A stretch of DNA of 64,000 bases from a virus. Lineage: Duplodnaviria > Heunggongvirae > Uroviricota > Caudoviricetes. The position numbers and the translations under genes are program-made. This document shows, one piece after another, positions 9,639 to 51,276 of this stretch. How positions within the stretch are numbered: the first letter of the stretch is position 1; every line of letters starts with the position of its first letter. The notes beneath the pieces were generated by a model. That model was not told the DNA's origin and did no database searches. It worked only from the letters and a program-made list of their open reading frames with translations. Location of the stretch: IMG/VR virus record IMGVR_UViG_3300021255_002251. One strand, written 5' to 3'.

Positions 9639-12600
9639 TTAAGTAAGAGGCCCCAATGAAGACTCACTTGCCTTAACAATGCAATTGACAATATTGTTTG
9701 TTGTACTATTCCAGTTCGATGCCGCTTTCCATGTGTTGTAGAGTGCATCTGGCACGATTATTTCCTTCGTGCTATCTGTGTAAACGAATGCATTTACATT
9801 TCCTAATGTAGGAACAGAAGAACTTTTCCGAAAATCAAACGTACGAACTCCATGACAATTGTTAAATGCACCCGCCGCTATACTTGTTATACCAGAAGGA
9901 AATGTAATTGATTGAAGTGCAGAACAGGCTTGGAACAAATTACTGGAGATGCTGGTTATACTCTCGGGAATTGTAACAGTTTCAAACCGACACCCTGAAA
10001 AAACATATGTTCCTATTGAAGTCACAGTGGAAGGAATTGAACATGTTTTCATGGCATAACAATTAAAGAAAGTATAATTATTCAGTTTACTTACCTGAGT
10101 TAGTGATTGTAGATTGATAGGCAATGCATAGCAATTCTGAAAGGCATATGCCCCTAGACTGCTTAAAGTTGATGGTAATACAAGTGACCTCAGCCCATAA
10201 CAATAGGCGAATCCATATGATGCGATTTGTGTCAGAACAGACGACATTCGACATTCCACTAGTCCATAACAGTAATAAAACGCATAAGTTCCTATCGTTT
10301 TTACATTAGGTGGTATAACAATTGATGACAGCGCACTACAATTATAAAATATATAGCCTGCTATAAATGATATGGTATATGGCAAAGTAATAGTTGCTAA
10401 TGAACGGCAATTTCGAAATGCATAAGTTCCCAATTCATACATAGTTGCAGGTAATGAAACTATATGAAGGGAATAGCAGTTATCAAATACATAAGAAGAA
10501 AGCACTGTAATAGATGATGGTATTATTATTGATTGAAGTCTAGAACACTCATTAAATGCTTTTTGCCCTACAGATGTTATAGTGGATGGTATAGTAATAT
10601 GCTCTAGAAACTGGCACGCTAGAAATGCAGAATCACCGATTTTAATATTTGAACCAAGATGAACCTCTTTTAACATAGAAGTTTTAGCGAATAACTGGGT
10701 AGTCGCATTATTTGATTCTTCTGTTACATCTGCCAGATTCATTCTGTTGAGAGTAAGAGTTCCACTATTGACAGTTATTGCTATTGTATAAGTTGCTGGA
10801 TATGATGATGGAGAGTATGTATGTGTAAGTGTTGTCTGACTTGTTCCACTCCATGTGGTAGCTCCAGATCCATCTCCCCAATTTATTGATACACTATTAA
10901 CTACCGACTGTGTAAGAGTTAATTTTACTGTACTGAATTTAGGGTCACGAACTGTCAAGATAGCACGAGTTTTGCCATCAGATGTTGTATATATCGCCCC
11001 AACTTGACATGTTCCCATCGCCTGTAGTGTCGACTTCATCTGCGCAAGCGAAAAGTTCCACCCTTGGCAAGTAAGCCCAGAACCAGAGTGGGAGGGAAGC
11101 GCAGGAAGAGCAGTAAGCGCATTTGCCTCCGACGCTGAATATGAATGAAGTACCGTTCCATCATAATCGTAGAACACTACGGCATTAGCACTCCCGCCGC
11201 CACCACCAGAGCCTTCATAAGTACCCGTGACTCCTAATATCGGGACATCCTTCTTAATGTTGGTTGCAACAAGATTAGCATCCACCACCTGTGCGGTGGC
11301 ATAGTTCGACACATCCGTCTGTGCCGTAGTCGTGATGTTTATGTTCCCAGAAGGAACTATCCCAGGCGTAAGCGAACCAGATACACCTAGTATCTCTACC
11401 CCAGACTTGATGTTTTCCGCTACAAGGTCGGCATCCACCACCTGTGCGGTGGCATAGTTCGACACATCCGTCTGTGCCGTAGTCGTGATGTTTATGTTCC
11501 CAGAAGGAACTATCCCAGGCGTAAGCGAACCAGTCACGCCCAATATTTCTACTCCTGACTTGATGTTCTCCGCCGTAATGTCCGCATCTATTGCCGCTGT
11601 CACTGGCTTTACCGTAACGGTAGAGGCATATATAAATTCTTCTGGATAATATGCCGCCCCCCAATTGACACCTTGACCAGAGGCTATCTGCGTCCATGTC
11701 TGTCCATTAGAGGATATCCATAATCCTGAATTAGATGCAGCTACATACTTTATCGCTCTTGGAATGGCTCTATTGTTGGTAATGCTGGAAAAATATCCAT
11801 CGGTCTTATCAGATTGCGTCCATGTCATCCCATCGGTGGAATACCATAATCCAGAGTTCGCATTACTGCCAGCGATGAACCTTGAAGATCCAAAATCTAG
11901 TGCGCCAAACCCACCACTTGTTACATTCGATTGTGTCCAGTTTATGCCATCTGCGGAATACCATAGTCCTGTTGAGTCTGATCCCGCCACAAACAATCCT
12001 AGACCGTATTTTAATGAGTACCATGTATCGTTTTTCTTATTAGACTGGGTCCAATTTATTCCATCAGTAGAATACCATAACCCTACCGAACTAGAGCTGC
12101 TTCCCGCAACAAAGATTCCATCCCCATAAGTTATCGCCCTCCAACTACTATCTTGCTTGTTTGATAAAGTCCATGAAGTTACAGTGGATGAATATCGAAT
12201 ACCTATGCTTGTCCCTGCCACAATCCTATTTTGTCCATAGGCGACACAATAGAAATAAGCATTTGCAGTGCCTCCCGATACTTGATACCAAGTCTGTCCA
12301 TCTGCCGAATACCATGTACCATAAAATTGCCCCCCAGCTAAAAAGTATCCACGGGCAAAAGTTATCCAAAGAAAACTCCCATTATTTTTCCCTGTCTGCG
12401 TAATCGTAGGAGAAGATCCAGTTATATTGTACGATTGCCAGATTCCCGTGTTATTGTTCGAACCAAGCACCCACCATCTTGTACCAATACTCTGGCTCAC
12501 TGTGCTAGGCGTGATAGTTAGAGTACGAGAATTGATAGGCGCAAGTTCAAAACTATCATACCCTATATATTTGTTGGAATCATAAGAATATGTTTGTCTG

Positions 12601-13739
12601 GCAACGGTAGGCTTAAGCTCTCCCAACTCCTCCAACGGCCCCAATTTGGCCGTTACAGACTCCAAACAGTTATATTCATCTGACAGAGTCAGTTTTACCA
12701 AAACTCCTCCTGCAGAAATACCCCTATATAGATAGATTTCGCCATCGTAATACCGAAGAAAAGCATCGCCGCCACCAGTAAAGGTACGGCTATCTTTTGT
12801 CCATGTCTGACTATCCGCAGAATATAAGAACGTTCCGTCTTCTGGGCTATATAATATGGCATATCCATTGACTGTTATAATTGGCGTACAAGAAAAAGTA
12901 TATTGAATATTAGACCGCGTAGTACCGTTGAGATATTGCGATTGCCCGTATTTCAACCCTGGAGATGTAGTGTTGGAACTATAGTTAACATAATACCCTT
13001 TATTATATCCTACATGCTGTGTATTAGAAACCATATAGTTGCCGCTATAGGACTGTCCGCTAGATGAAACTGCAACAGCACCATTGGCTAGCGCAAAACA
13101 ATTGTTGTTTGCCACTTCTAACCTATAATAGTCATATCCATCGCCCGATGCATGAGTCCATGTAGCCAAATCAGTTGAGTAATAGATATAGTATTGGTAG
13201 ATGATGATAAACTTGCTATTGAAGAAAATGAGGTCTTTTATCTTCTGGTCTGTAATCTGGCTTGTCTGCGTCCATGTAATTCCGTCTGACGATGAATATA
13301 GGTGTCCCGTCTCATCCGCAGGAAGCGCGACATATAGGTTGTTCCCGTAGACAATCTTTGAGAAGCGTCCTGTGGTCTGATTCGTCTGGCTCCATGTCTC
13401 ACCGCCATCCGTAGAACGATATATGCCAGAATCCGCCCTGTCATAACATAGGAAAGAAACTCCATTGGCAATGTCAAAGTAATAAACCGACTCGTTGAAT
13501 TGAGATAGAGTAGTTGGAGCGCTAAAGATAGTACGAACAATTAGCCTTCCGTTCGCATCTACTCCATTCAGAGTCAAATCCTCTACCACCTGCCCTACCG
13601 CACCTGGGATAGAAGCGATAGACTCCGGCCACTGGCTTAAGTCGTTTGTTGGCGAGACGGTTGGGTTCTTCGCTTCTATCGCAGTCTTGATGTTCGCCTT
13701 GTTGGTAATCAACTGCTGGATTTCACTAGCGATGCTCAT
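9639..13739 (-). CDS. tail fibre / receptor-binding protein: BNR (Asp-box) repeats, tandem 51-aa modules, Gly linker, C-terminal BspA-type leucine-rich repeats
   Basis: Multiple S-x-D-G-x-T-W Asp-boxes (STDGGETWSQ, YSTDGINWTQS, YSADGQTWYQV and others). A 51-aa module ..SLTPGIVPSGNINITTTAQTDVSNYATAQVVDADLVAENIKSGVEILGV.. is repeated. GSGGGGGS linker. C-terminal Cys/Tyr-rich LRRs (IPSSITVLSSYVFDNCYSLHIVSLPATMYELGTYAFRNC...). Its ATG overlaps the upstream gene's stop by 4 nt. Confidence 0.8.
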   Translation of the reverse strand: MSIASEIQQLITNKANIKTAIEAKNPTVSPTNDLSQWPESIASIPGAVGQVVEDLTLNGVDANGRLIVRTIFSAPTTLSQFNESVYYFDIANGVSFLCYDRADSGIYRSTDGGETWSQTNQTTGRFSKIVYGNNLYVALPADETGHLYSSSDGITWTQTSQITDQKIKDLIFFNSKFIIIYQYYIYYSTDLATWTHASGDGYDYYRLEVANNNCFALANGAVAVSSSGQSYSGNYMVSNTQHVGYNKGYYVNYSSNTTSPGLKYGQSQYLNGTTRSNIQYTFSCTPIITVNGYAILYSPEDGTFLYSADSQTWTKDSRTFTGGGDAFLRYYDGEIYLYRGISAGGVLVKLTLSDEYNCLESVTAKLGPLEELGELKPTVARQTYSYDSNKYIGYDSFELAPINSRTLTITPSTVSQSIGTRWWVLGSNNNTGIWQSYNITGSSPTITQTGKNNGSFLWITFARGYFLAGGQFYGTWYSADGQTWYQVSGGTANAYFYCVAYGQNRIVAGTSIGIRYSSTVTSWTLSNKQDSSWRAITYGDGIFVAGSSSSSVGLWYSTDGINWTQSNKKNDTWYSLKYGLGLFVAGSDSTGLWYSADGINWTQSNVTSGGFGALDFGSSRFIAGSNANSGLWYSTDGMTWTQSDKTDGYFSSITNNRAIPRAIKYVAASNSGLWISSNGQTWTQIASGQGVNWGAAYYPEEFIYASTVTVKPVTAAIDADITAENIKSGVEILGVTGSLTPGIVPSGNINITTTAQTDVSNYATAQVVDADLVAENIKSGVEILGVSGSLTPGIVPSGNINITTTAQTDVSNYATAQVVDANLVATNIKKDVPILGVTGTYEGSGGGGGSANAVVFYDYDGTVLHSYSASEANALTALPALPSHSGSGLTCQGWNFSLAQMKSTLQAMGTCQVGAIYTTSDGKTRAILTVRDPKFSTVKLTLTQSVVNSVSINWGDGSGATTWSGTSQTTLTHTYSPSSYPATYTIAITVNSGTLTLNRMNLADVTEESNNATTQLFAKTSMLKEVHLGSNIKIGDSAFLACQFLEHITIPSTITSVGQKAFNECSRLQSIIIPSSITVLSSYVFDNCYSLHIVSLPATMYELGTYAFRNCRSLATITLPYTISFIAGYIFYNCSALSSIVIPPNVKTIGTYAFYYCYGLVECRMSSVLTQIASYGFAYCYGLRSLVLPSTLSSLGAYAFQNCYALPINLQSLTQVSKLNNYTFFNCYAMKTCSIPSTVTSIGTYVFSGCRFETVTIPESITSISSNLFQACSALQSITFPSGITSIAAGAFNNCHGVRTFDFRKSSSVPTLGNVNAFVYTDSTKEIIVPDALYNTWKAASNWNSTTNNIVNCIVKASESSLGPLT
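11278..11583. repeat. near-identical 153-bp tandem duplication inside the tail-fibre gene (2 full copies plus partials)
   Basis: gcatccaccacctgtgcggtggcatagttcgacacatccgtctgtgccgtagtcgtgatgtttatgttcccagaaggaactatcccaggcgtaagcgaaccag recurs at 11278 and 11431. Confidence 0.8.
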
Positions 13740-16700
13740 GGTTCTTCGTTCCCTTCATTGGCATTATTCACCAAGTTGGTCCCTGTATTAATCTCATGCA
13801 AGATGTTTTCCAGATTTGCCAACTGTGCTTCCAATGCCGCAACACGATTGGATAAAGCAACTAGTTGACTATATAAGGTGTTTGTAGCGGAATCCGTATA
13901 GTTGGTAGCACCATTCGCTACCGCATAGTCCTTTGCATCGACATAAGCCCTGACTGTAGGTATGACAATATTTATCTTGTTTTCTACATGCTGGCTCAAG
14001 TTGGTTTCCCCTATCCAAAAGTTGTCTATGCCCCCAATTGGATTGATGTTGAATGAGCCTACACCATGAGACTGGTACTTCGGCAATGCAGTTATCTCAC
14101 TTGCCGACATGGCTTGGTAGTTAGTTGGATAGTAGTTCCACACGAACGCCCCTTGATTAGTGGCAGATGCGGTCGTTCCTAGCATTATTGAATTACGGGC
14201 TTCTAGTCCAGCATTATGGCCGACTCCCATCATGTATGCTTCGTCGGAAGAAGAGTTGTTGTAAGTTCCAAAGATATAGTTTAGCCTTTTGTATTCCGCA
14301 TTGTTCGAAGACCCAAGAGAAAAAGAGTTTGTCCCGAGAATATTAGAACTGCCAAGGGCAATAGATCCTTCGCCAGCGGAATTTCCAGAACCTAGGGCTA
14401 GAGAGTGATCACCAATGAAATTATTCTGTCCTATGGAAAATGAGAAAGCTCCCATGCTTCCTGTAAAACCGATGCCAATTGACCCGAATTCGGAAACAAA
14501 GTCTTCTCCTATGACTAAAGAATATGAATCGGCTGTTATGCCTAAGCCAAACCCGGAAGAAAAACTTCCCACTGTATTCTGCTCTCCAAAAACAGAAGAA
14601 AAATCACCGGCGGAAATCCCGATTCCGAAAGCCGTGCTGTGTCTCCCTATTGAATTATCATAGCCGAAGATTGCAGCGTAGTCATCTCCAGCATTTGCTA
14701 ATCCGAAAACAGCAGAACCGAATTTTACTGAATTCGTGAATTGTTCATCTCCAAAAACGATGGAGTTGGCACACCCTTCGGATACTGCACCTATAACCAA
14801 GTTGCTAAATCCGCCATCGACGTGCCACCGTACCACATTAGATATGTTAGAACTTGTAACAAGGTGGTCTCCATTAGCAATCGGCTTGTTCGTGAGAAAA
14901 TCTCTTCTGGCGGTTATAGTTCCACCGGGGACCATAAATCCTATCTCATCATCGTTATCGCTTCCCGGCTCATCGGTTGAATACTGAACACCGTTTTCCG
15001 TATAATACAATGTCCATAAGCTGCCCGTCCTGATGATATAAAGGTCCAACATACCTTGCGGTACGTTTGAGAATTTCCAATCGGAAAATCCAACCCCGTT
15101 AGTGTATACTGCCATATCCGTCTTTTGCCGCATGTTGTTGGTTGCATACGAAATATCGGAAAGATAGGCAAGCTGGGAGACGGAAACATCACCCGTCTGT
15201 TCGTCATAAGAATGGACACTCCATCTTCCGTTATAAAAGATACCGGTGTTTCCGTCCGTAAGTTCTCGGGCGGAATCCGCATTAAGTGCTTCCTCCGCAT
15301 ATTCACTATGTCCGTTGAAAAACCATAGATTATCAATTGAACTGAAATAGAAGGGGGGCATTGCGGCCTCTCCGTTGGCCGTCATGAGGGAATTTGTTAC
15401 ACGGTCTACATAGTTTGTGGCTGGCGTGAGATCTACAGTAGGTGCGCCAGTTATGACGGAATATGGGATTGAGTTTGTTGGGTATGGAAGCCTATCCTGC
15501 TTTTGAGAATCTACTGTTGTAGGCAGCCACTCAACATTATTGCTAGAAGGGGGACTGTCTCCTGGCTCGAGCGGAGCATTCGCCTTCCATAGTTTACCAG
15601 CATATGATACTACCTCTCCACGCAGATATGACTCCGACGACGACCATTGTTGATAGGCGCTAGATGCATCTAGCTTGTTGGACACTGCCATGTCCGTGTA
15701 GTTCGTAGAGGCTGTCGCCGCATTACTCACATCCGTATGCATGGCATATACTGAAAGATTTGGTGTCCCAGATATGGAAGAGTAAGGAATGGCATTAGTT
15801 GGATACGGAAGTTTCGTCTGATAGAGCGACAGGTTCGGAGTACCGCTTATCACCGCATATGGGATTGAGTTAGTTTCATATGGCAACTTATCTTGCTTCG
15901 CTGAAATTGCCGTATCCTGCATCGAGTTTGTCTCTACGGCCCTGTCAATCGTTTCTAGTATATCTACCCCGTTGACTCTGATAGAGCCCCTACTCGCGCC
16001 CTGCGATGCCCCGCTTATTGTGATTCCACCATTAGAATCATAATTGTCGTTGACAACTAAGGAGCCTCCTGCATAGTGTCCTCCTCCTATTGAAAGTTGA
16101 GGCTCTAGGAAATCCTCATCTCCGCCGATAAGAGCAAGCCGACTATTGTTGAAACTTATACCGCCATTCTGCGAAACTGGCAAATACCCTCCAAGGTCGC
16201 TCTCCAACGCAAGCGTATCTCCCGCCGTACTAACCGACGTGACCTCCCTAGAAAACGTAAATATTGTTCCTTCTATGTCCTTGACCAAATTAGTTGCATT
16301 TGAATTGCTCGATATGATATATACCGAGCTTCCTGAATATGCATACCATCCCATGCCATCCCATCCGCTTCTCCCGCCGAGTTCTTCCTCGCTCGTCACC
16401 CATACTGGGAGACCGTCAATGTCATAATTGTCGTCAGACCTCGTATACGACCAGTCCCCGAAGGTATAGTTCGCAACCGTAACCGTTCTGTCAGAATTGA
16501 TTACATTGATGCCGTCGGTGATTCTCTTTATTGACTGAGCAATAGAATCCGTATAATTTGTCCCATCCTTGGCCGCCGCGTTCACTTCCGAATGAGTAGC
16601 ATAGCCAGAAAGAGACGGAGTTCCAGAAATGGCTGCATAAGGAATAGCATTCGTTGGATAGGGAAGCCTGTCCTGCTTCAGCGAATAGATGAATACTTCT

Positions 16701-17833
16701 TCCCATGAACTTGCCGCATCCCCATTCACGGGTTCGTACACATACCCGCTAAATGTAACAACTGAACTTAAAGGGACTCTCCATAGCCTCCCAAGATGCG
16801 ACACAGTATCCCCAGGCTCGTATTCGTCGTTGGGATTCCATGCGGGATATGTAGCCGCCCCATTCAACTTCCCGCTCACGTCGGGTATCTGGTTCGTCGT
16901 GGCGAACGGGTGGCCAGCATTCTGGTTGGTTGCGGGTGGCCCGTCGTTCGTCAGCTGCGAGGTCTTTGTCGGCGTGATGAGGCGGCGTGTCGCTGTGACT
17001 CCTTCAGCCATGAACTCAACATTCAAGTCTGATTCAGAGGTGCCACTAATCTCGAAAAAATCTCCATCAGATAGCGTCAGCGTCCACGTTCCATTTGCAA
17101 AAGTCATGCTTTCAACCGTCACGCCGTCTGGGAGAACAAGCCCGCTGAACTCCCACTCCGTGAACCCCGTGTAGAGAGCCGTTCCAGTAGCCTTGGCATC
17201 GGCAGCAGATCCCGCCGTTGCATTCGTGGACGGCGCAACGACAGCCACCGCTGGGGGTATGTCGTTCGTAAGCGCGAGCTTGCCGACATAATCTTTTACA
17301 TAGATAGAATCTCTGAAAATATAACACTCAGAGTTTCCGACTTGTGTAATATTGGTAGATGTCGCACCTCCTATTTGGTCTCCTGTTATGGCCGAATATA
17401 CATTTCCTTCCTTTTCATAATATTCGACAACTGATAGGTCCTCCCATATTCCAATGTAGTAGATGTCTCTATACGGAATATCTGATACCCATCCATTCTT
17501 GTAGCCTTCTGATGATACATAATACGTCTGGAATGTCATTCTAATATAAGGAGAATATGTAGTGCCTTCAAAACTCTTGATATACCATGGCGCAAATCCT
17601 TCTTTCAACACGTTCCTCGCCGCATCTATCGTGTTCGTGCCGTCTGAAATCTTGCTTGGCTCGACATAAGATTTCAAATCCCCTAGCGTCCCAACCCCCA
17701 TATCAATATCTCCAAGCAATGTCTGGTTAGTAGCGGCATTCCCATCCGTATCTACCAATGCGCCAATAAGCATTGGCGAGCTCACAGATGCCAATGCGAA
17801 CCAAACCAATGATTTAAGAAAAGACTTAACCAT
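13736..17833 (-). CDS. second large tail fibre / tailspike-like protein (1365 aa)
   Basis: Repeated LPYPTNxIPYxxISGTPxLS modules. A Gly/Ser-rich beta-roll-like region (SIALGSSNILGTNSFSLGSSNNA...) is reminiscent of YadA-head repeats. C-terminal coiled-coil ALEAQLANLENILHEIN. Confidence 0.7.
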   Translation of the reverse strand: MVKSFLKSLVWFALASVSSPMLIGALVDTDGNAATNQTLLGDIDMGVGTLGDLKSYVEPSKISDGTNTIDAARNVLKEGFAPWYIKSFEGTTYSPYIRMTFQTYYVSSEGYKNGWVSDIPYRDIYYIGIWEDLSVVEYYEKEGNVYSAITGDQIGGATSTNITQVGNSECYIFRDSIYVKDYVGKLALTNDIPPAVAVVAPSTNATAGSAADAKATGTALYTGFTEWEFSGLVLPDGVTVESMTFANGTWTLTLSDGDFFEISGTSESDLNVEFMAEGVTATRRLITPTKTSQLTNDGPPATNQNAGHPFATTNQIPDVSGKLNGAATYPAWNPNDEYEPGDTVSHLGRLWRVPLSSVVTFSGYVYEPVNGDAASSWEEVFIYSLKQDRLPYPTNAIPYAAISGTPSLSGYATHSEVNAAAKDGTNYTDSIAQSIKRITDGINVINSDRTVTVANYTFGDWSYTRSDDNYDIDGLPVWVTSEEELGGRSGWDGMGWYAYSGSSVYIISSNSNATNLVKDIEGTIFTFSREVTSVSTAGDTLALESDLGGYLPVSQNGGISFNNSRLALIGGDEDFLEPQLSIGGGHYAGGSLVVNDNYDSNGGITISGASQGASRGSIRVNGVDILETIDRAVETNSMQDTAISAKQDKLPYETNSIPYAVISGTPNLSLYQTKLPYPTNAIPYSSISGTPNLSVYAMHTDVSNAATASTNYTDMAVSNKLDASSAYQQWSSSESYLRGEVVSYAGKLWKANAPLEPGDSPPSSNNVEWLPTTVDSQKQDRLPYPTNSIPYSVITGAPTVDLTPATNYVDRVTNSLMTANGEAAMPPFYFSSIDNLWFFNGHSEYAEEALNADSARELTDGNTGIFYNGRWSVHSYDEQTGDVSVSQLAYLSDISYATNNMRQKTDMAVYTNGVGFSDWKFSNVPQGMLDLYIIRTGSLWTLYYTENGVQYSTDEPGSDNDDEIGFMVPGGTITARRDFLTNKPIANGDHLVTSSNISNVVRWHVDGGFSNLVIGAVSEGCANSIVFGDEQFTNSVKFGSAVFGLANAGDDYAAIFGYDNSIGRHSTAFGIGISAGDFSSVFGEQNTVGSFSSGFGLGITADSYSLVIGEDFVSEFGSIGIGFTGSMGAFSFSIGQNNFIGDHSLALGSGNSAGEGSIALGSSNILGTNSFSLGSSNNAEYKRLNYIFGTYNNSSSDEAYMMGVGHNAGLEARNSIMLGTTASATNQGAFVWNYYPTNYQAMSASEITALPKYQSHGVGSFNINPIGGIDNFWIGETNLSQHVENKINIVIPTVRAYVDAKDYAVANGATNYTDSATNTLYSQLVALSNRVAALEAQLANLENILHEINTGTNLVNNANEGNEEP

Positions 17834-20089: not shown

Positions 20090-20875
20090 TCATCGGAAGA
20101 TTTGCTTGCCGGCGAAACCATTTCCCAGCATAGTGCTCTGTGGGTTCTCATATGCCCGTAGGGTCTTGTCGCTCTTCAATTCGTTCCACAGCGCTTCATA
20201 CGACTTGCGCGAATCGTAGTGTCGAAGAAGAGCATTTGTAAACTGCCCTCCTGTTGAAGCTCCATACGAATAGGTATCGTCAGGGCATCCGCTCCAGCAC
20301 AGCATCGAGAACTTCTGCTGCTCATTCAACCTATGATCCCACGATAGAGGTGGCCGAACCTTAAACCCAGGAGCGCGATACATCGTCTGCGAATGGCAAC
20401 AATCAAAGTATAGGAACACCCTCCCCTTGCTCTTGCTTATGATGCTCCATATCTCATTGTCTCGCATGTAAGTATCGTAGAGACATAGGAACTCATCCTT
20501 CCCGTCCACCTCTTCATTTCCAGTATTGTAAAACGGCTCGCTCCCTCCGTGTCCGGAATAGCAGAATATCACAAGCCCATCCGTTGCGCTTGCAATGGCC
20601 TTGTTCAATGCAGCCGTCACATTCGCTTTCGTGGCATTGGAATCTCTAAAGAGAACAATGTTCGGAGTATATGCCGATAGAAGCTTAAACATCCTATTCG
20701 CATCGTACCCCGCCCCCGGACAATCGCCAGCGAACCTCGAATTCTCCATACCAACAACCACCACATATGTGTTGGTTGATTTCGCTTCTGGCTGTATAGT
20801 TCCATCGGACTTGCATCCGCCGAATCCTAGACACATTCCAAACGCAACTAGAAATGCCATTACATGCTTCTTCAT
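20090..20875 (-). CDS. lipoprotein with caspase-like (peptidase C14) domain
   Basis: Lipobox MKKHVMAFLVAFGMCLGFGGC. Catalytic dyad context YSGHGG (His) and FDCCHSQ (Cys), as in caspase / metacaspase / CHAT folds. Confidence 0.55.
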   Translation of the reverse strand: MKKHVMAFLVAFGMCLGFGGCKSDGTIQPEAKSTNTYVVVVGMENSRFAGDCPGAGYDANRMFKLLSAYTPNIVLFRDSNATKANVTAALNKAIASATDGLVIFCYSGHGGSEPFYNTGNEEVDGKDEFLCLYDTYMRDNEIWSIISKSKGRVFLYFDCCHSQTMYRAPGFKVRPPLSWDHRLNEQQKFSMLCWSGCPDDTYSYGASTGGQFTNALLRHYDSRKSYEALWNELKSDKTLRAYENPQSTMLGNGFAGKQIFR

Positions 20876-21417: not shown

Positions 21418-22317
21418 CTAGAAAAGGAAGCCTTGGCTATATGTCTGTGCTTTCTCTTTTTCGGAGATATAATTCAGATAGAGGCTTTCAAACACCTCCT
21501 CCGTCCTGCCCTTTCCTAAGTATCTCTCGAAAGACGAATTCCCCGCATTGAGATATTCGTGGCGCTTATAAAGGCTTGTAGGAAGGTCGTATGTGCAATC
21601 CGTTTCACCCCGCTTGCCATCAAATGATAGAATCCATTTGCACTTGCGAGATGTTAGCCAATCGACAAAAGCATCAATATCTATACCTCCATAGTACATC
21701 TGCCTTTTGTGTACAGAAGCATACGGAGGGTCTAGGTAGAGGAAATCTTGGCATCTTGGTTCTAATGTTTCATATGATGCGCTCCGAAACTCTACAGACT
21801 TCGCCTTGAGAACTAAACTCCAGTCTCGACATATCTCTTTCAGTCGGACAGGGTGTATTCCGGGGCGTGAGAAATGACATGAATTATTGAACTCCCCCTT
21901 GTCGTTGTACCTCGGCATCCCATTTGTTGTAGTCCGCATTATGAAAAGGAAATCAATCGGGCTATGCTCTCTATTGTACCTGTCACGAATCGTATAGAAC
22001 ACTTCCTTTCTTCGCTCATAGTCCTCCTCACATAGCCCATGACGGTTGAATGCTTCCCACAATTCTCCATATCCATTGCATAGTTCGTCTGGATAGTCCC
22101 TTATCATGTTCCACAACCCGATAAGGTCTCTATTAACGTCAGATGCGACATATCTAGCGACCTTAACGGTAGGTGTATTAAGAAGACGATATAGTACGGA
22201 GCAGCCGCCACAGAACGGCTCATAATAGGTGGCAATCTCCCGTGGCATTCTGGCTACAATCTCCGCCGCTTGGCTTCGCTTGCTCCCGCTCCATTTGACT
22301 ATTGGCTCTAGTTGCAT
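21418..22317 (-). CDS. dam: DNA adenine methyltransferase, Dam / D12 class
   Basis: N-terminal KWSGSKRS (equivalent of Dam KWAGGK) and catalytic LYLDPPY. Its ATG shares the A at 22317 with the upstream gene's TAA stop. Confidence 0.85.
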   Translation of the reverse strand: MQLEPIVKWSGSKRSQAAEIVARMPREIATYYEPFCGGCSVLYRLLNTPTVKVARYVASDVNRDLIGLWNMIRDYPDELCNGYGELWEAFNRHGLCEEDYERRKEVFYTIRDRYNREHSPIDFLFIMRTTTNGMPRYNDKGEFNNSCHFSRPGIHPVRLKEICRDWSLVLKAKSVEFRSASYETLEPRCQDFLYLDPPYASVHKRQMYYGGIDIDAFVDWLTSRKCKWILSFDGKRGETDCTYDLPTSLYKRHEYLNAGNSSFERYLGKGRTEEVFESLYLNYISEKEKAQTYSQGFLF

Positions 22318-23138
22318 TAGAAAGCAAACTCCCCTTGGACAAGCCCCCTAATATCTATTGGCTTGTCATCCTTCGGCACGAATTCTCCCTTTAGTTCCGA
22401 ACTCTTCTCCGCCATCCCTTCCGCCATCAACCTTATCGGCATCCCATGCGCAAAGTAGCACGGAGTATACCACGGCCCCTCATACACTTCTCTCGAGAGA
22501 GAATCTTGGTGTGTGACTACAGCAGCATATCCTAGAAGAGAAAACTGGACATATGAAATGTAGCTCGCCGTAGGGTCTAAGTCTTCCCCATACAGAATCA
22601 AGTCGCATTGCCGACCGCCACTATCTATGAAAGCCTCCGCCGCTTCGATGAGCAATGCGCCGGCTCCGCAAGAGCAGTCGTTCATCCTTATTATCTTTCC
22701 AACCTTCGGGGCTTCACTAGCCATGGACATTCTCGCCATCATCCTAGCAATGCAATCGGGGGTTAGATACTGTCCAAAATGTTTGTTCGTTGCACTCAAT
22801 GCTTCATACACATGTCCTAGGAAATCGCTTCTCCTCAATTCTAGGGCCTGTACCACATAGGATAGCAGCACGGCAATCTTTCCCATTCCCTCATTGCCGT
22901 ATTTAGACACGAACGACATATACTGCTTTTCGATTTCTCCCTTTTCTTTTTCGTCCAGTGTCACAGCCCCGCTAATGGAAAGAGAGAATATCCTGCAGGC
23001 GTCGCAGAAAATAGTCCGCTGGTCTATGGACTGCGAGACGGAAGACAGAAGTTTTAGGAATGCCTTAAAGTATCCGTCCCAAGTTGTAGGCTCATCTACC
23101 TTGCGGACCGTCACCCCATTCTGCTGACTCTTTCTCAA
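22317..23138 (-). CDS. HsdM / N6_Mtase-family homolog lacking the catalytic NPPF/Y motif
   Basis: GQYLTPDCIARMMARM (motif X, GQ[FY]xTP) and DCSCGAGALL (motif I) are present. No NPPF/NPPY/DPPY follows. The ORF ends at a stop/start overlap with dam. Confidence 0.5.
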   Translation of the reverse strand: MRKSQQNGVTVRKVDEPTTWDGYFKAFLKLLSSVSQSIDQRTIFCDACRIFSLSISGAVTLDEKEKGEIEKQYMSFVSKYGNEGMGKIAVLLSYVVQALELRRSDFLGHVYEALSATNKHFGQYLTPDCIARMMARMSMASEAPKVGKIIRMNDCSCGAGALLIEAAEAFIDSGGRQCDLILYGEDLDPTASYISYVQFSLLGYAAVVTHQDSLSREVYEGPWYTPCYFAHGMPIRLMAEGMAEKSSELKGEFVPKDDKPIDIRGLVQGEFAF

Positions 23139-24825: not shown

Positions 24826-26136
24826 TCAAGCTCCAACTCTTTCTGTTACCAAGTTCCCGTTATGGCAGAGCAACTTGCACTTGCTCATGGCTTTCACAAT
24901 TGTCTTCCCCTCATCGCTACGGCTAAGACACACTCTGTTATCTGACCCTTTTACTGACGATACTATATATATAACTCCGTTGAACTTGACAGTATCCCAA
25001 AGAGAGAATCCACGAATCCTTCCGCTCATCTTTTGAGGTCTCCTATATCCGCACTTTAGTTCTTTAGCGGTCATCTTACTTTTGTCCTTGATTGACTTTG
25101 GAGACAAAATCGTGTTGTCATGCAGATTCCTCCTATGCCTTCTTCTCTGATACAGACGATAGACATTATATGAATTGAGAAGTGCATTAAAATTCCCTGC
25201 TATGCAGAAAGAATCGTTTCTGTGGCTTTTCTCGACATTGTGTTCCCTCCGTGCCATCGCAGTCTCATACCCATAGGTGAACTCTACTGGAGTCTTCCAA
25301 GAATTATGCACAAGTTTATCAATCAGATATTTTCGCATGGAATTCATATGTGCCTCATTTTTGTGTATAGGCGGTCTCTTAAACTTCAACACCTTCTTCT
25401 TCTGGTGATGGGATTCGTGGCATTCGTGGCACAAAGTCACCACATTGTCTGGAGAATTGCTACCGCCATCCGCCCTACGGCGGATATGATGCACCTCTAA
25501 CCTTACGGACTTGTCCTTATATGGACTTGCACCGCACACTCGGCATTTGTTCCCGTCCCGCCACTTGGCATAGGATTTCAAATTCTCCCATCCTTCCAAT
25601 GCGCCTTGCTGATACTCTTCTCCTTTGATTGATGGATTCTGTATCTTTTGAGTATCAAACTTTCCAATCTCCACACGTAATCTGCTTACTGGCAGAATCT
25701 TTCTTACGAACTCTATTGCTCGTATGTGAGAATCAGCCTTATGCTTCACAGACGGCGGGAGAGAAGCATTTCTTTCTTCGTTCGCCCTGTTCGCCCACCT
25801 CGCAGGCCTATACCAGTTGTGCTTTCTTCCTCGTCTCCCCCTCCGCATTTCCCTACGGGCAGTCAATAGATTAGACACATCATCCCGTATCTCAACTTGC
25901 GCAGAGTATAGTTCCTTCTTTTCTGTTGATGCAGTCATCCCGATGTGCTTGCTTCCAACATCGACGCCAAGAGTAACTTCTTGACGATGATGGAAACTAT
26001 CGCAAAGAAGTCGAATGGTAAAAGGCTCTCGCCGTACTACCTTCGCCCTCTTATGCTTTAGAGAATATGCAACCCACCCGAACCGTTTGGTCGGCATTAG
26101 AGGTTTGCCCTCTTTATCCTGTACGTATACTAGCAT
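24826..26136 (-). CDS. iscB: IscB-like RNA-guided nuclease (PLMP-RuvC-HNH; OMEGA / Cas9-ancestor family), 436 aa
   Basis: N-terminal VYVQDKEGKPLMPTKRFGWVAYSLK (PLMP domain). RuvC-I TLGVDVGSKHIGMTAS. Arginine-rich bridge helix ARREMRRGRRGRKHNWYR. RuvC-II-like RLRVEIGKFD. HNH CRVCGAS...LEVHHIRRRADGGSNSPDNVVTLCHECHESHH. RuvC-III KSHRNDSFCIAGN. A C-terminal beta-rich domain follows. Confidence 0.8.
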   Translation of the reverse strand: MLVYVQDKEGKPLMPTKRFGWVAYSLKHKRAKVVRREPFTIRLLCDSFHHRQEVTLGVDVGSKHIGMTASTEKKELYSAQVEIRDDVSNLLTARREMRRGRRGRKHNWYRPARWANRANEERNASLPPSVKHKADSHIRAIEFVRKILPVSRLRVEIGKFDTQKIQNPSIKGEEYQQGALEGWENLKSYAKWRDGNKCRVCGASPYKDKSVRLEVHHIRRRADGGSNSPDNVVTLCHECHESHHQKKKVLKFKRPPIHKNEAHMNSMRKYLIDKLVHNSWKTPVEFTYGYETAMARREHNVEKSHRNDSFCIAGNFNALLNSYNVYRLYQRRRHRRNLHDNTILSPKSIKDKSKMTAKELKCGYRRPQKMSGRIRGFSLWDTVKFNGVIYIVSSVKGSDNRVCLSRSDEGKTIVKAMSKCKLLCHNGNLVTERVGA

Positions 26137-26460
26137 TCTTTTTTCTGTGTCTTACTTTTTTTGTTAACCGATTTCTCGGTAAGTCACCAGTCAGATTACT
26201 CCTTCTGGTGTTTGGTGCCCATCGGAGGGTTGCAGAGAGTTTCCTTTGTTCGATGCACACACTGTTCCTCTACCACAGAACTGTTTAATGTACATCCGCA
26301 GTGCGGCAAACTTGGACAACTATTCGCCGGTGCCTATGCATTTCCCTGTAACTTCTACTAGGTTTTCTGTTTCTTTCGTTTCCTTTCTAGTCTCCTAGTT
26401 GAACTATCCTTGCGGATTCCCGAAAAAATTAGTTGAAATAAAGCCTCTTGCAGGTTCTAG
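26137..26460 (-). ncRNA. putative omegaRNA / tracrRNA-like scaffold between the CRISPR array and iscB
   Basis: 324-nt region with no credible ORF, located where IscB omegaRNAs sit (5' of the ORF). It contains an imperfect anti-repeat at about 26397-26430: the minus-strand RNA AAUUUUUUCGGGAAUCCGCAAGGAUAGUUCAAC is complementary to the first ~20 nt of the minus-sense repeat GUUGGAACUACCUCCCGAAA. Confidence 0.45.
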
Positions 26461-26760
26461 GTTGTAAATGGTGTGATTTCGGGAGGTAGTTCCAACTTGG
26501 ATTCGGGCGGACGATTCCTCCTTCCGGTTGTAAATGGTGTGATTTCGGGAGGTAGTTCCAACTTGGCCCTCCTGAACGGCGGGCGGCTCCGCGTTGTAAA
26601 TGGTGTGATTTCGGGAGGTAGTTCCAACATAGACCGCCTTATAATATTCCTGCTCGTTGTTGTAAATGGTGTGATTTCGGGAGGTAGTTCCAACCGTGTG
26701 CCCTAGCGGACGGTTGTATTGGTCGTTGTAAATGGTGTGATTTCGGGAGACATCTCCAAC
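26461..26760 (-). CRISPR. mini CRISPR array: 5 x 36-bp repeats (GTTGTAAATGGTGTGATTTCGGGAGGTAGTTCCAAC on the plus strand), 4 x 30-bp spacers; the repeat at 26725-26760 is degenerate
   Basis: Repeats at 26461-26496, 26527-26562, 26593-26628, 26659-26694 are identical; 26725-26760 differs in its last 11 nt (gggagacatctccaac). Spacers at 26497-26526, 26563-26592, 26629-26658, 26695-26724. The strand is assigned to match iscB and the anti-repeat. Confidence 0.85.
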
Positions 26761-26766
26761 GAACAA

Positions 26767-32838: not shown

Positions 32839-33135
32839 TCATTCTACAACATACCAGTCTTCAGAGAGCATGTCAGTCTGTGAAGCCAGCCAGCCTGTGA
32901 GAACCTTGAAGTCTGTGGTGAACATGCGGATTGAGCCGAGACATTCAATCTCTCCGCCTTTTGATTCAGCGAGCGCTTTCAGATGCGGATCTCTGCACCA
33001 TTCAGCCTTCACGGAAGAGGCTGGAAGAAGCCAGAGTGACATACCTTTGCCATTCCATCCTTCTCGTGCAACTCTCTTCCCTTGCTTCAGAGCACGAATT
33101 GCATCTCCAAAATCCATTAAGTTATTCTCGTTCAT
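32839..33135 (-). CDS. DUF2829 family protein (Tad2-like), copy 1
   Basis: MNENNLMDFGDAIRALKQGKRVAREGWNGKGM..EDWYVVE. The start was chosen at the internal Met of the listed ORF. Confidence 0.6.
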   Translation of the reverse strand: MNENNLMDFGDAIRALKQGKRVAREGWNGKGMSLWLLPASSVKAEWCRDPHLKALAESKGGEIECLGSIRMFTTDFKVLTGWLASQTDMLSEDWYVVE

Positions 33136-33146
33136 GTCCTTCGCTC

Positions 33147-33455
33147 CTATTCCACCACTACCCAGTCTTCGGCCAAAAGGTCGGAGTTTGTAGCAAGCCA
33201 CCCAACCATCAACTTGTTGTCGCGGGTCTTCATTACGAAAGTCCCCAACTTCTCAATTGAGGCATTTCGCCCAAATGCAAATTTTAGGTTTTCGCTCATG
33301 GCATCCATCCTTGGCAGTTTGCAGGACGGTTCTAGCCAGATGTACATGTTGGGATCGAAAGACACGATGTTGCCGTTCCATCCCTTCCTAGTCATCTTCT
33401 TCCCGACCTTGAGCAGTTTCAGGGCTTCAGAAAAGTCCATCGATCTCTCAAACAT
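33147..33455 (-). CDS. DUF2829 family protein (Tad2-like), copy 2
   Basis: MDFSEALKLLKVGKKMTRKGWNGN...EDWVVVE; a paralog of the adjacent gene. Confidence 0.65.
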   Translation of the reverse strand: MFERSMDFSEALKLLKVGKKMTRKGWNGNIVSFDPNMYIWLEPSCKLPRMDAMSENLKFAFGRNASIEKLGTFVMKTRDNKLMVGWLATNSDLLAEDWVVVE

Positions 33456-42650: not shown

Positions 42651-44507
42651 CTATGCCACCTTTTCAAACTTGTTTATTGGGAACGATCGAATAAGATTCA
42701 CTATGCCCTTTGCCGTTGCAGTATGCAGAACCTTTATCGCATTGACAACAATTGCGACATCTTCCCCATCCTTCCCTATCCTTATGAGAAGCCGTATCAG
42801 ATAGTCATGCCATAGCTGTCTCGCAAAATACAACATCCGTATTTTGTCTGAGACAGTAGAGAAGTCTGACGAGTCGAAGTTAGACATTATCGTTATGAAT
42901 GCCTTGTATTCATCTGTAGACAACGATTCTACGGATTCCCTAATGCTATCAGTCTCACCTTCCTTATAGGACAATATGCTCTTTACAATCTTCCTAGAAG
43001 TGTTGGAACCGATGATTTCGATTGGAATCAATTTGTCCAAGCAAGACTTGATGGTTGCATCACCCTTCTTATTGAGAAGGAAGTTTATCAAAGCCCCTTC
43101 GGTTACAGAAGGAGGGGCATTCACATCGGCGGCATTACCAGCGACAATCGGCTCTATGAGCTGTTCCGCCGATTTGCTCTGGTCTTCCTCTTCTGCCTTC
43201 GTTGTCTTGGCTATCTCACTAGCCAAGGTAGAATACTCTACTCCTAATCGTTTTGCCGCCTCCTTAAGAAGCAATGAACGATGTACCTTGTCTTTGCATT
43301 TCGCTATAGTCTCTAGTACGGCTCTAGTAATCCTCACAGCGGCATTTGTCTCATCTGGATTCTGCTCCGCTGCTCTCGCCGCTCTTATCTGGAACTGAAC
43401 GATAGATTCAGCATTGGAAGCAATGAGGTTTGAAAAGGAGTCCTTCCCATGTTTCAAGATATAGGAATCTGGATCGTCTCCATCTGGAAGGGCCAACACT
43501 CTGATTGGCATACCCTCGGCAAGAAGCAACTGTGCGGCTTTTATCGTTGCCTTGTGCCCTGCTCCATCGTCGTCGAAACATAGAAGGGCATTGTCGGCAA
43601 CCCTATGGAGCATAACGGCATGGTCTTCCGTGAATGCCGTTCCCAATGGAGCAATAGCCGTATTGAACCCATTTGCATGAAGCCGTATGCAATCTATCTG
43701 CCCCTCACATATTATCGCTTCTCTGTTCGGAGCCTTCACGATGTTCTTGCGGGCTTCGTCGAATGCAAAGAATGTTCTTGATTTTTTGAATATCATCGTC
43801 TCTGGCGAGTTGACGTACTTCCCGCTTTTCTTGTCTTCAACCAACTGGCGTCCAGAAAAAGCTACCACCTGCCCATTCTTATCCTTGATTGCGAACACGA
43901 GACGATTTGCGAAATAGAAATATGGTGGACGGATTGCAGAGCCGCTAACCTTTATAATTCCTGCTGCCGCGAGGTCTTTATATGAGTATCCGTGTCTCCC
44001 AGCCCATGCTAGAATTTTATCTACCTCTTTTGGGGCATATCCTATGAGGAACTTGTCAACAATGGTTGCATCTAGTTCCCGCCCCTTAATATATTCTCTA
44101 GCCAGGTCTGCATCTTTGCATCGTGTAGACTTGAGCATCTTGTTAAAGTCTAAGGCCAGCTCCGACATGATTGCATAGAGCCGTTTTCTAGTCTTCACTG
44201 CTGGATTTTCTGCTGCATGAAGTTCTATCCCGACAGATGATGCGAGCTTCCGTATCGCATCTCCAAAAGAAAGCCCCTCCTGCTTCATCACAAAAGAGAA
44301 CACATCTCCACTCTCACCGCAGCCGAAGCAGTGGTATGTGCCACGTGTCACATCTACCTTGAAACTAGGGGTCTTTTCGTTGTGAAATGGGCAGCAGCAC
44401 CAAAGTTCGCTTCCTCTTGGCTTTAAAGAGAATCCATAAGAGGATATGAGGTCGGCTATGTCAACCTTTGCTTTTACCTCTTCCTTCTGTTCTTCTGAAA
44501 TAGCCAT
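42651..44507 (-). CDS. DNA primase (DnaG-like: CHC2 zinc finger plus TOPRIM)
   Basis: CCCPFHNEKTPSF...YHCFGCGESGD zinc-binding domain. TOPRIM ICEGQIDCIRL...LCFDDDGAGHKATIKA. Confidence 0.85.
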   Translation of the reverse strand: MAISEEQKEEVKAKVDIADLISSYGFSLKPRGSELWCCCPFHNEKTPSFKVDVTRGTYHCFGCGESGDVFSFVMKQEGLSFGDAIRKLASSVGIELHAAENPAVKTRKRLYAIMSELALDFNKMLKSTRCKDADLAREYIKGRELDATIVDKFLIGYAPKEVDKILAWAGRHGYSYKDLAAAGIIKVSGSAIRPPYFYFANRLVFAIKDKNGQVVAFSGRQLVEDKKSGKYVNSPETMIFKKSRTFFAFDEARKNIVKAPNREAIICEGQIDCIRLHANGFNTAIAPLGTAFTEDHAVMLHRVADNALLCFDDDGAGHKATIKAAQLLLAEGMPIRVLALPDGDDPDSYILKHGKDSFSNLIASNAESIVQFQIRAARAAEQNPDETNAAVRITRAVLETIAKCKDKVHRSLLLKEAAKRLGVEYSTLASEIAKTTKAEEEDQSKSAEQLIEPIVAGNAADVNAPPSVTEGALINFLLNKKGDATIKSCLDKLIPIEIIGSNTSRKIVKSILSYKEGETDSIRESVESLSTDEYKAFITIMSNFDSSDFSTVSDKIRMLYFARQLWHDYLIRLLIRIGKDGEDVAIVVNAIKVLHTATAKGIVNLIRSFPINKFEKVA

Positions 44508-50338: not shown

Positions 50339-50568
50339 TTACCAGGCATTAATAGGAACATTCTTTGCCGCAAAAAGAGATTTGTGCGAGTAGTATGGAT
50401 TTCATGGTGGAGGCTTATGCCGCGCCCCCAAGCGGTTAATAGGAACTACCTCTGCACAAAGAAATAAAAAGGGCGGAGAGTATCTTTCATCCAAAGAAAA
50501 ATAGGAACCCTCTTTGCCCAAAAATAGTTTTCAATTCATACGCCCCACTCGAGGGACGACCTAAACGA

Positions 50569-50641
50569 TGAAACCAGATGGACTCGAACCACCTCCTTCC
50601 AACGATTAATTGGAAATGCTTTCCTGTTACACCATGGTTTC
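50569..50641 (-). ncRNA. tRNA-like gene with an unusual anticodon loop (UUAAUCG) and no encoded CCA
   Basis: Acceptor GAAACCA / TGGTTTC pairs 7/7. T-arm GGTGG-TTCGAGT-CCATC. The anticodon stem TCCAA/TTGGA encloses TTAATCG, which has a pyrimidine at position 37; the anticodon assignment is ambiguous. Confidence 0.35.
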
Positions 50642-50867
50642 ACGTGGGAACTTTCCGAGTACCCAAAACTCCTGTTCCTTTGCGATACATGCGGTCTCTG
50701 ATATCTCCCAAGCCGAGCTTCCAGAAACAACTTGTAAACACCCATCGCATGAACAGCCTATCTCTTCAGTGGACCGTCACCGGATTAGCACCGTGCTGCC
50801 AGACCTATCGTTGCATGCTTGATTAGCACCCCTTGTACTTCGGGGCCGAACAGCCTGACTCTAAAGA

Positions 50868-50942
50868 TGGAGCAAGATGCCGAACTCGCATCGGCGTAAA
50901 CTACCTTGGAAGGGTAGCGCATAACTTCTCTGCCAATCTTGC
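50868..50942 (-). tRNA. tRNA-Gly(TCC)
   Basis: Cloverleaf by hand. Acceptor GCAAGAT/ATCTTGC, anticodon arm CTACC-CTTCCAA-GGTAG, T-arm GCCGA-TGCGAGT-TCGGC, CCA encoded. Confidence 0.7.
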
Positions 50943-50947
50943 AAAAA

Positions 50948-51022
50948 TGGAGCGAACTACGGGATTCGAACCCATGACCTCATCCTTGGCAAGGATACGT
51001 ACTACCACTGTACTAAGTCCGC
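50948..51022 (-). tRNA. tRNA-Gly(GCC)
   Basis: Acceptor GCGGACT/AGTTCGC (G4-U69), anticodon loop TTGCCAA, T-arm ATGGG-TTCGAAT-CCCGT, CCA encoded. Confidence 0.8.
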
Positions 51023-51113
51023 ATTTGCCCCTTATCCCACCACTTTCAGCGGGGGCTACCTCGTTTCCTCATATAGACCGACAGAGCGGGACTCCGGCGG
51101 AGAGGCTTCTAAA

Positions 51114-51189
51114 TGGAGCGACAGATGGGTTACGATCCCACGACATCAACCTTGGGAAGGTTGCACTCTACCAACTGAGTTACTGTCGC
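51114..51189 (-). tRNA. tRNA-Gly(CCC)
   Basis: Acceptor GCGACAG/CTGTCGC, anticodon arm CAACC-TTCCCAA-GGTTG, CCA encoded. Confidence 0.8.
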
Positions 51190-51196
51190 ATGAAAT

Positions 51197-51276
51197 TGGT
51201 GGAACCGATGGGAGTCGAACCCACTATTTGTCTGCTTGCAAAGCAGATGCCTTTACCACACTCGAGCCACGGCCCC
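51197..51276 (-). tRNA. tRNA-Ala(TGC)
   Basis: Acceptor GGGGCCG/CGGTTCC with G3-U70, anticodon arm TCTGC-TTTGCAA-GCAGA, CCA encoded. Confidence 0.75.

Follow-up and report, generated by a model that had tools for sequence, protein, structure and literature searches.

A CRISPR array beside an iscB gene on a rumen phage: four spacers, one of them strongly GC-rich, as probable guide units

The stretch of DNA analysed here, referred to as the window, comprises 64,000 nucleotides (nt) of a virus assigned to Caudoviricetes (IMG/VR record IMGVR_UViG_3300021255_002251) and recurs without change within a 270,640-bp metagenome contig (ERZ12302814 NODE_17). On its minus strand lies a CRISPR array with four spacers, here called W1 to W4, together with iscB, a gene for a compact RNA-guided nuclease whose open reading frame (ORF) is 324 nt from the array. 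An initial annotation made from the letters alone had placed four spacers within 26497-26724, and its coordinates and all four spacer sequences were reproduced exactly. In transcript order the module reads degenerate repeat, W4, repeat, W3, repeat, W2, repeat, W1, repeat, 35-nt linker, anti-repeat, scaffold and iscB. Its parts are listed below in order of position, with spacers given in the sense of the CRISPR RNA (crRNA); other loci used for comparison carry L numbers, tracrRNA stands for trans-activating crRNA and GC for guanine plus cytosine content.

24826..26136, minus strand: iscB, 436 aa (Pfam RRXRR 1.9e-53, HNH 6e-10)
26137..26397, minus strand: omega-RNA/HEARO-like scaffold (tracrRNA body, reaching the iscB start codon), from the RF02033 match and covariation
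26398..26425, minus strand: anti-repeat, 28 nt, TTTCGGGAATCCGCAAGGATAGTTCAAC, with an internal GCAA-capped mini-hairpin; predicted by RNAfold to pair with the repeat
26426..26460, minus strand: A/T-rich linker, 35 nt, from the last repeat to the anti-repeat; candidate leader-like end
26461..26496, minus strand: repeat 5 in transcript order (scaffold-proximal), GTTGGAACTACCTCCCGAAATCACACCATTTACAAC
26497..26526, minus strand: spacer W1, CGGAAGGAGGAATCGTCCGCCCGAATCCAA, GC 60%; in cis with the scaffold
26527..26562, minus strand: repeat 4, identical copy
26563..26592, minus strand: spacer W2, GCGGAGCCGCCCGCCGTTCAGGAGGGCCAA, GC 76.7%, compositional outlier
26593..26628, minus strand: repeat 3, identical copy
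26629..26658, minus strand: spacer W3, AACGAGCAGGAATATTATAAGGCGGTCTAT, GC 40%
26659..26694, minus strand: repeat 2, identical copy
26695..26724, minus strand: spacer W4, GACCAATACAACCGTCCGCTAGGGCACACG, GC 60%
26725..26760, minus strand: first repeat of the transcript (repeat 1), degenerate, GTTGGAGATGTCTCCCGAAATC...; L023 has a homologous degenerate copy in first position

The five direct repeats are 36 nt long and start at 26461, 26527, 26593, 26659 and 26725, with a period of exactly 66 nt. Four of the five are identical, and the fifth copy (26725-26760) has five differing positions. The spacers between them are each unique and each 30 nt long, and 100 shuffled versions of the window contained no copy of the repeat at the level of 3 mismatches. 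CRISPR arrays are generally recognized by at least three near-identical direct repeats of 23-55 nt, regularly spaced and separated by unique spacers of similar length, and this geometry is what the window displays (5 repeats, 66-nt period, 4 unique spacers). The reading of the locus as a genuine CRISPR array in a phage, adjoining an RNA-guided nuclease (IscB) that uses a target-adjacent motif (TAM), was borne out. Each spacer has a perfect repeat on its 3' side in the transcript sense; because this is the repeat that each spacer uses, the degenerate repeat 1 is dispensable for every crRNA.

Since the module lies on the minus strand, the spacers had initially been listed in antisense. The remark that two of them begin with TTGG is therefore correct for the plus strand and not for the spacers as read, the crRNA being the reverse complement; in that sense the plus-strand TTGG is a CCAA at the repeat-proximal (seed, or TAM-side) end. 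The chance of two spacers in four having a common 4-mer at one end is about 0.02-0.05, and TTGG/CCAA was rejected as a motif on its occurrence in 0 of 23 spacers of related arrays. Two ORFs through the array, at 26404-26766 (minus strand, 120 aa) and 26473-26706 (plus strand, 77 aa), were set aside as artefacts of the repeat; the 77-aa ORF has been called as a gene by the ENA gene caller (L003:9431-9664).

Between the array and iscB, the Rfam model RF02033 (HEARO) matched positions 26210-26404 of the minus strand with 66.9 bits (E = 3.3e-13). The first hairpin of the HEARO model is missing from this match, and the anti-repeat occupies its place. The scaffold could be aligned to sequences lying upstream of iscB at 10 related loci, and RNAalifold on the resulting 11 loci, the window included, gave 61 base pairs, 27 of them with compensatory changes; the scaffold is therefore a genuine structured RNA on the minus strand. 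RNAfold paired nt 1-4, 6-9 and 13-20 of the repeat with the anti-repeat. A repeat:anti-repeat duplex is likewise predicted for L016 and is present in the centroid structure of L011, and in an alignment of four array-bearing loci 89.5% of the repeat:anti-repeat cells were paired, compared with 16-55% in slid controls. At the other side of the anti-repeat, a CTAGAA...GGC stretch adjoining the last repeat is conserved in L010, L011, L012, L023 and L027. The linker is thus a candidate for a leader-like end at which new spacers would enter, with a polarity taken from the comparison of L012 with L027 described below.

The nuclease itself has a literal PLMP motif at residue 12. Its best sequence matches in PDB are IscB chains (OgeuIscB 7xht and others; E about 1e-38 with the single sequence and 1e-58 with a profile), and the best Foldseek matches, obtained with a poor query model (pLDDT, the predicted local distance difference test, 57), are IscB-omegaRNA-DNA complexes (E = 4e-21). 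Cas9 chains matched weakly in these searches. Residues D59, E156, H216/H217 and H305/D308 align to the RuvC and HNH catalytic motifs of solved IscBs, and none of them varies among 35 homologues; judged from these alignments, the active sites are intact. As regards the C-terminal TAM-interacting domain of IscBs, the profile alignment to solved IscBs covers only residues 2-347, and the Foldseek alignments extend over full chains. Residues ~380-434 are all-beta with pLDDT 70-87, within an AlphaFold model too poor for domains to be assigned (overall pLDDT 57, predicted template modelling score 0.27). No Y1 transposase was present within +/-10 kb of iscB or among the window Pfam matches listed, element ends not having been searched. 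The identical IscB protein is recorded in NCBI, JGI, Logan and ENA. One of these records is run SRR873598, which falls inside the run range of a sheep-rumen study (SRR873595-SRR873610); the contig of this run, like that of ERZ27297711, breaks within the repeat. Relatives were found in rumen data from sheep, cow (PRJEB21624) and buffalo.

About 2,500 IscB homologues were retrieved at E <= 1e-30, many of them on contigs of 100-276 kb, and the upstream regions of twelve were compared. Plain omega-RNA without an array precedes iscB in L001, L002, L013, L014/15, L017-22 and the second iscB of L027. L011, L012, L016, L023, L024/25 and L027/28 carry arrays of 2-6 spacers each, which agree with the window array in their side and strand relative to iscB. 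Array-less and array-bearing members of the family have 56-90% IscB identity. The closest array-bearing relative, L023 (IscB at least 90% identical), is syntenic with the window (dUTPase-array-iscB-DUF3310), and its first repeat is degenerate in the same manner; its spacers of 30, 19 and 26 nt include none in common with W1 to W4. In L011, L012, L024/25 and L027/28, IscB is 73-74% identical, the repeat is GTTGTAACTACC(A/C)CCCGAAACACCACCATGTACAAC and each array has 4-6 spacers; in L016/L029, IscB is 64% identical and a different repeat accompanies 2 spacers. The contigs of L004 and L010 end inside the last repeat.

With the 23 spacers of related arrays, the window array makes a set of 27. None of these is common to different arrays except for one old spacer (L012a/L027_S4), and the spacers thus vary while the same or related repeats are kept, as seen in L023, L011, L012, L024 and L027. 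L012 and L027, 98.6% identical over scaffold and iscB, share their scaffold-distal spacer and have unique scaffold-proximal spacers, three in L012 and two in L027. L028 is L027 without one internal unit. Scaffold-proximal differences and internal loss among such close relatives point to real, polarized spacer turnover, and the simplest reading of these alignments is a working array family, with ongoing spacer addition at the scaffold-proximal end and internal deletions. By the same polarity, W1 is probably the newest and W4 probably the oldest spacer of the window array.

The spacer common to L012 and L027 (L012:2379-2408, L027:9490-9519) differs at 3/30 positions (15, 21 and 27), which all belong to the same codon phase; read in frame 1 (KCFAANPQKP), each difference is synonymous. 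Drift accounts adequately for them (fourfold-site divergence 5.3%, P = 0.22), though the two copies may instead have been captured separately, from different alleles of a gene; the common phase, suggestive only at p about 0.1, was dropped as evidence. That neutral drift can explain the 3/30 differences at P = 0.22 also fits a fossil or decaying array, built once, whose spacers drift neutrally and of which IscB uses at most W1 as a fixed guide. Such an array would agree as well with the shortening of some spacers to 19-26 nt, with the identity of the array in the sole full copy retrieved, with the lack of adaptation genes among the matches listed and with the lack of a database match for all 27 spacers, although most CRISPR spacers of any environment lack one. 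We nevertheless regard decay as unlikely: four repeats remain identical over 36 nt, the IscB catalytic residues are invariant, and repeat:anti-repeat complementarity is kept in diverged lineages, with changes in the repeat matched in the anti-repeat. Moreover, the arrays of close relatives are wholly different, and their scaffold-proximal changes and the internal loss between L027 and L028 amount to turnover.

Short spacers between intact repeats measure 19 and 26 nt in L023 (L023:2521-2601) and 23 nt in L012 (L012:2577-2599), most spacers of the family being 29-31 nt long. This suggests that repeat-distal trimming of spacers is tolerated, in agreement with a functional guide of ~16 nt; as characterized IscBs use a guide of about 16 nt, the 19-26-nt spacers of L023 would work.

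Among the array-less relatives, L013 has the first ~50 nt of its plain omega-RNA duplicated in tandem (L013:3625-3760; starts 3625 and 3692) with 16 nt between the copies, which looks like a one-spacer proto-array. Two iscB genes ~600 nt apart occur at L027:10001-13247 (also in L028), the first with a six-spacer array and the second with plain omega-RNA. At L014:4001-6649 and L015:118-2766, iscB is truncated to 342 aa and directly followed by an IS605-type tnpA (Y1_Tnp) and tnpB; here, apparently, one RNA-guided element has interrupted another.

The duplication in L013 (~50 nt with a 16-nt insert) is the kind of event from which an array might arise without Cas1-Cas2. Under this alternative, the 5' module of omega-RNA was duplicated or recombined, guide capture was tied to the mobility or homing of IscB, and the spacers are former insertion-site flanks. 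Plain omega-RNA 5' modules do resemble the anti-repeat region by eye (GGGAAACCGAGCAAG...CTGACTAGGAG compared with GGGAATCCGCAAGG...TTCAACTAGGAG); the IscB module also sits in different gene neighbourhoods in different phages, spacer lengths vary, and adaptation genes were not found among the matches listed. However, spacers of mostly 29-31 nt, repeats of 36 nt and an exact 66-nt period are canonical type II geometry, the flanks of the related loci compared contain no match to any spacer, and TnpA does not adjoin the window iscB. An origin of this kind is accordingly very unlikely, and capture of the spacers from foreign DNA is the reading that we carry forward.

The composition of the spacers bears on where they came from. 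GC is 60.0%, 76.7%, 40.0% and 60.0% for W1, W2, W3 and W4, in a window of 46.4% GC (standard deviation 8.4% among its 30-mers); the window value agrees with a backbone described as mid-40s. The initial annotation had called two of the spacers markedly GC-rich, putting W2 at about 70%. W2 is indeed a strong outlier, and its computed value of 76.7% replaces the earlier one; W1 is only mildly high, and W4 is equally GC-rich. Window 30-mers at or above 76.7% GC make up 0.036% of the total, or 23 positions, of which 6 are W2 itself and 17 are others, whereas 7.3% of them reach 60%. For four random window 30-mers, the probability of a mean of at least 59.2% is 0.0014 and that of a maximum of at least 76.7% is 0.0013. 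The GC excess is therefore real for the four spacers as a set, but it is carried by W2; W1 and W4 have equal GC, which is only mildly high. Because the GC of W1 is reached by 7% of phage 30-mers, a GC-richer source for two spacers is not established: the proposal that at least two derive from a GC-richer replicon is plausible but unproven for W2, and W1 at 60% lies in the normal spread of the phage.

A GC excess across the family was dropped as well, since the 21 spacers tested, taken from six arrays, did not significantly exceed their home backbones in GC (mean z 0.47, p = 0.08). The six L027 spacers range from 30% to 60% GC and all 27 spacers from 30% to 77%, and a single value of ~77% is not extraordinary in 27 draws from sources of roughly 50% GC. 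Given the lack of a significant family excess, W2 could be a local GC-rich patch of a genome of roughly 50% GC. W2 can be read in an open frame, LALLNGGRLR, with G or C at 10/10 third codon positions, a pattern with a chance probability of about 0.1; this codon-phase argument was judged suggestive only and dropped. That W2 was not derived from the sequenced part of the phage is established, and a GC-rich coding stretch outside this phage is its most likely source.

Such a source might be the bacterial host, with spacers serving as guides against its chromosome or resident elements (defence loci, prophages) and so aiding takeover. Huge-phage arrays reportedly target host genes (Al-Shayeb et al. 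2020), the spacers have no match in the phage window, and the LALLNGGRLR frame of W2, with all third positions G or C, resembles GC-rich coding DNA. However, that pattern alone is expected at about 0.1 by chance, the GC of the host is expected near the 46% of the phage, so that a spacer of 77% would be atypical there too, and the 20-mer of W2 gave only chance matches in GTDB (one genome per species). We find host-directed spacers decidedly unlikely.

Our preferred reading, to which we assign a probability of about 0.62, is that the four spacers are guide units of a phage-borne CRISPR-associated IscB system, transcribed from the minus strand with iscB and captured from foreign DNA. From the features described above, we infer how the array is expressed and its RNA processed, how DNA is cleaved, what the targets are and by which route spacers are acquired, as follows. 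Transcription would cover the array and iscB together and might read through from the dUTPase operon. Each unit would consist of a 30-nt spacer followed on its 3' side by a 36-nt repeat, whose first ~20 nt would pair with the anti-repeat (26398-26425) that heads the HEARO/omega-RNA scaffold reaching to the iscB start codon. The W1 unit would pair in cis and form, with linker, anti-repeat and scaffold, a natural single guide. The W2, W3 and W4 units would pair in trans with a second scaffold molecule, followed by RNase processing, by analogy with type II systems and the non-coding RNA (ncRNA) of DelIscB. By the behaviour of characterized IscBs, the IscB-RNA complex would then cut double-stranded DNA matching the repeat-proximal ~16-20 nt, with a TAM 3' of the crRNA-sense protospacer. 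Spacers would be captured from foreign rumen DNA, most probably that of competing phages or other mobile elements, and new units would enter at the scaffold-proximal end, with the adaptation machinery presumably supplied in trans. In jumbo phages, 57% of spacers match other jumbo phages (PMC13037316), and inter-phage competition is therefore the default expectation.

Several results weigh against this reading. Cas1, Cas2 and Cas4 were absent from the strongest padloc and Pfam matches of 70 window ORFs, for which the first 25 families were listed, and from +/-10 kb, and spacer lengths of 19-31 nt in the family are looser than the usual Cas1-Cas2 ruler. The HEARO score of the scaffold lies under the Rfam gathering score of 83, and covariation of repeat with anti-repeat is weak, with a single compensatory pair in four sequences. 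Neither a sigma-70-like promoter nor a terminator could be recognized near the array, which starts 6 nt past the dUTPase stop codon. Protospacers for the 27 spacers were not found in GenBank phages or PLSDB (blastn, word size 11, E <= 10), and the search for self-matches covered 64 kb of the 270,640-bp contig.

The search for targets, suggested at the outset, covered IMG/VR and phage and plasmid databases as well as, for W2, genomes and metagenomes, and it yielded no target above chance. The blastn searches with the window array and the other 23 spacers gave partial matches only (E >= 0.3); those of the window array, 23-25 nt long with E >= 1 in Synechococcus, Planktothrix and Erwinia phages, were put down to chance. 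In IMG/VR, exact repeat-proximal 20-mers of W1 to W4 had 0 matches, as did a wobble-degenerate pattern of W2 for its frame with 100% G or C at third positions. Scans of GTDB (one genome per species) and JGI metagenomes, made for W2 only, returned 2 matches to its 20-mer in GTDB (596 Gb) and 3 in the metagenomes. These too were rejected as chance, the remaining 10 nt agreeing at 1-4 positions and the expectation for a 20-mer of the W2 type in the GTDB collection being about one. The repeat had no match in GenBank phages, PLSDB or IMG/VR, the anti-repeat pattern had none in IMG/VR, and the 27 spacers gave chance matches only against ~300 kb of related phage loci. The foreign protospacers with a flanking motif that characterize CRISPR arrays were thus not recovered from databases in which coverage of the rumen virome is incomplete, and, with no protospacer found, no TAM could be derived. 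These negative searches are absence of evidence, and a foreign origin of the spacers is likely.

Within the window, the impression that no spacer has a match elsewhere was confirmed by a Hamming scan of both strands, the best match having at least 10/30 mismatches. As only 64 kb of the 270,640-bp contig was searched, the spacers might still be self-directed or regulatory, with their matches in a part of the phage genome that lies beyond the window. Yet the best self-match inside it has at least 10/30 mismatches, no more than 17 other 30-mer positions of the 64 kb equal or exceed W2 in GC, and the spacers of syntenic relatives are unrelated, unlike what a conserved regulatory role would give. 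We hold self-direction to be most improbable, and foreign-captured guide units remain our preferred reading of the array.

Elsewhere the window encodes a portal protein, terminase, RecT/YqaJ, RusA, primase, dUTPase, the anaerobic ribonucleotide reductase NrdD and 15 tRNAs. When 12 kb surrounding the array was compared with GenBank phages by megablast, no match appeared. The tRNA genes form a cluster at 50567-52627 (minus strand; Ile, three Gly, two Ala, Met, Pro, three Thr, three Arg, Val). Adjacent genes of 1366 and 1365 aa occupy 9639-17833 (minus strand), the first of them with a 153-nt tandem repeat inside it (11278-11573, 1.9 copies, 93% identical); a strong BspA-type LRR_5 match in one window ORF probably belongs to one of these two genes. 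Two adjoining Tad2-like (anti-Thoeris) genes lie at 32839-33455 (minus strand), a caspase-like Peptidase_C14 gene at 20090-20875 and two DNA methyltransferase genes at 21418-23138; these genes place the IscB module in a neighbourhood of anti-defence and modification functions. A padloc call of a defence reverse transcriptase (RT_UG29, "DRT", 1.8e-57) at 42651-44507 (minus strand) was rejected, the gene being a DnaG-like phage primase; the RT_UG29 profile is covered only over its primase part (positions 4-463 of 2280).

Rare as they are, CRISPR-associated IscBs are believed to represent the step from transposon-borne omega-RNA nucleases to Cas9. In the present family, the step from omega-RNA to array is visible inside one phage-borne lineage with array-less and array-bearing members, which makes it a concrete system for two questions, namely how a repeat arises out of a guide RNA stem and where the function that integrates spacers comes from. 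It is tempting to regard these rumen phage IscBs as living intermediates in the birth of a type II-like array from omega-RNA, used by phage against phage, with capture by hijacked host integrases or by a route free of Cas1-Cas2; we offer this as a tentative idea and on balance doubt it. The narrower message is that the spacers are real and foreign-looking, one of them strongly GC-rich. The finding is moderately interesting, chiefly through its surroundings, and a compact 436-aa nuclease with a natural four-guide array may interest tool builders.

Arrays on huge phages have reportedly been described by Al-Shayeb et al. (2020/2022). The window array is like those of huge or jumbo phages in being short, on a phage of more than 200 kb, with no adaptation genes seen and spacers that do not match the window itself. 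It differs in that its effector is IscB, which is unmentioned in the jumbo-phage survey, and in that no phage target was found; jumbo-phage arrays are likewise usually without cas1, cas2 and cas4 (PMC13037316).

Compared with type II CRISPR-Cas9 systems, especially the compact II-C and II-D, the window has in common 36-nt repeats, 30-nt spacers, an effector with HNH inserted in RuvC, and a crRNA that runs from spacer to repeat and pairs with a tracrRNA anti-repeat. Type II-C arrays are read towards the end at which new spacers enter, as the window array would be. However, the effector has 436 aa and no recognition (REC) lobe, in contrast to a Cas9 of more than ~700 aa; cas1, cas2 and csn2 are absent from the matches listed for the 64-kb window; and a complete omega-RNA scaffold, joined to the 5' untranslated region of the nuclease gene, serves as tracrRNA. 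With no Cas9-sized effector and no adaptation genes seen, this is not a type II system.

The IscB/HEARO systems of the OMEGA class (OgeuIscB, PDB 7xht/8csz; RF02033) have the same protein family, catalytic residues and PLMP/RRXRR N-terminus, and a structured RNA directly upstream on the same strand with the guide at its 5' end. In the window, by contrast, there is no single fixed guide; a split repeat/anti-repeat with four alternative guides replaces the first hairpin, no IS200/IS605 tnpA lies near iscB, and the Rfam score is below the gathering threshold. Lacking tnpA and a single fixed guide, the locus is not an ordinary IS200/IS605 IscB. IscB/HEARO genes are known on viral contigs (16% of such contigs; PMC9755519).

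The closest likeness is to the CRISPR-associated IscBs. These resemble the window system in having a small IscB of about 440-460 aa with no Cas9-type REC lobe, an upstream ncRNA in which an anti-repeat and an omega-RNA-like scaffold come after the spacers and repeats, and a repeat:anti-repeat hairpin in place of the first omega-RNA stem. An example, DelIscB from a Delaware Bay metagenome, was reportedly described by Altae-Tran et al. in 2021 (Science 374:57). The window system differs from it in residing on a 270-kb rumen phage and in belonging to a family with array-bearing and array-less members side by side at 56-75% identity, the likeness to DelIscB being judged by description and not by sequence. 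CRISPR-associated IscB with a repeat/anti-repeat ncRNA is known to be active with a 16-nt guide (PMC12660989). The arrangement of the window locus is thus already known as CRISPR-associated IscB; novelty may lie in the family, where a single phage-borne IscB lineage combines 5' modules of three kinds, plain, duplicated and array-bearing, with a spacer turnover that can be measured between near-identical loci.

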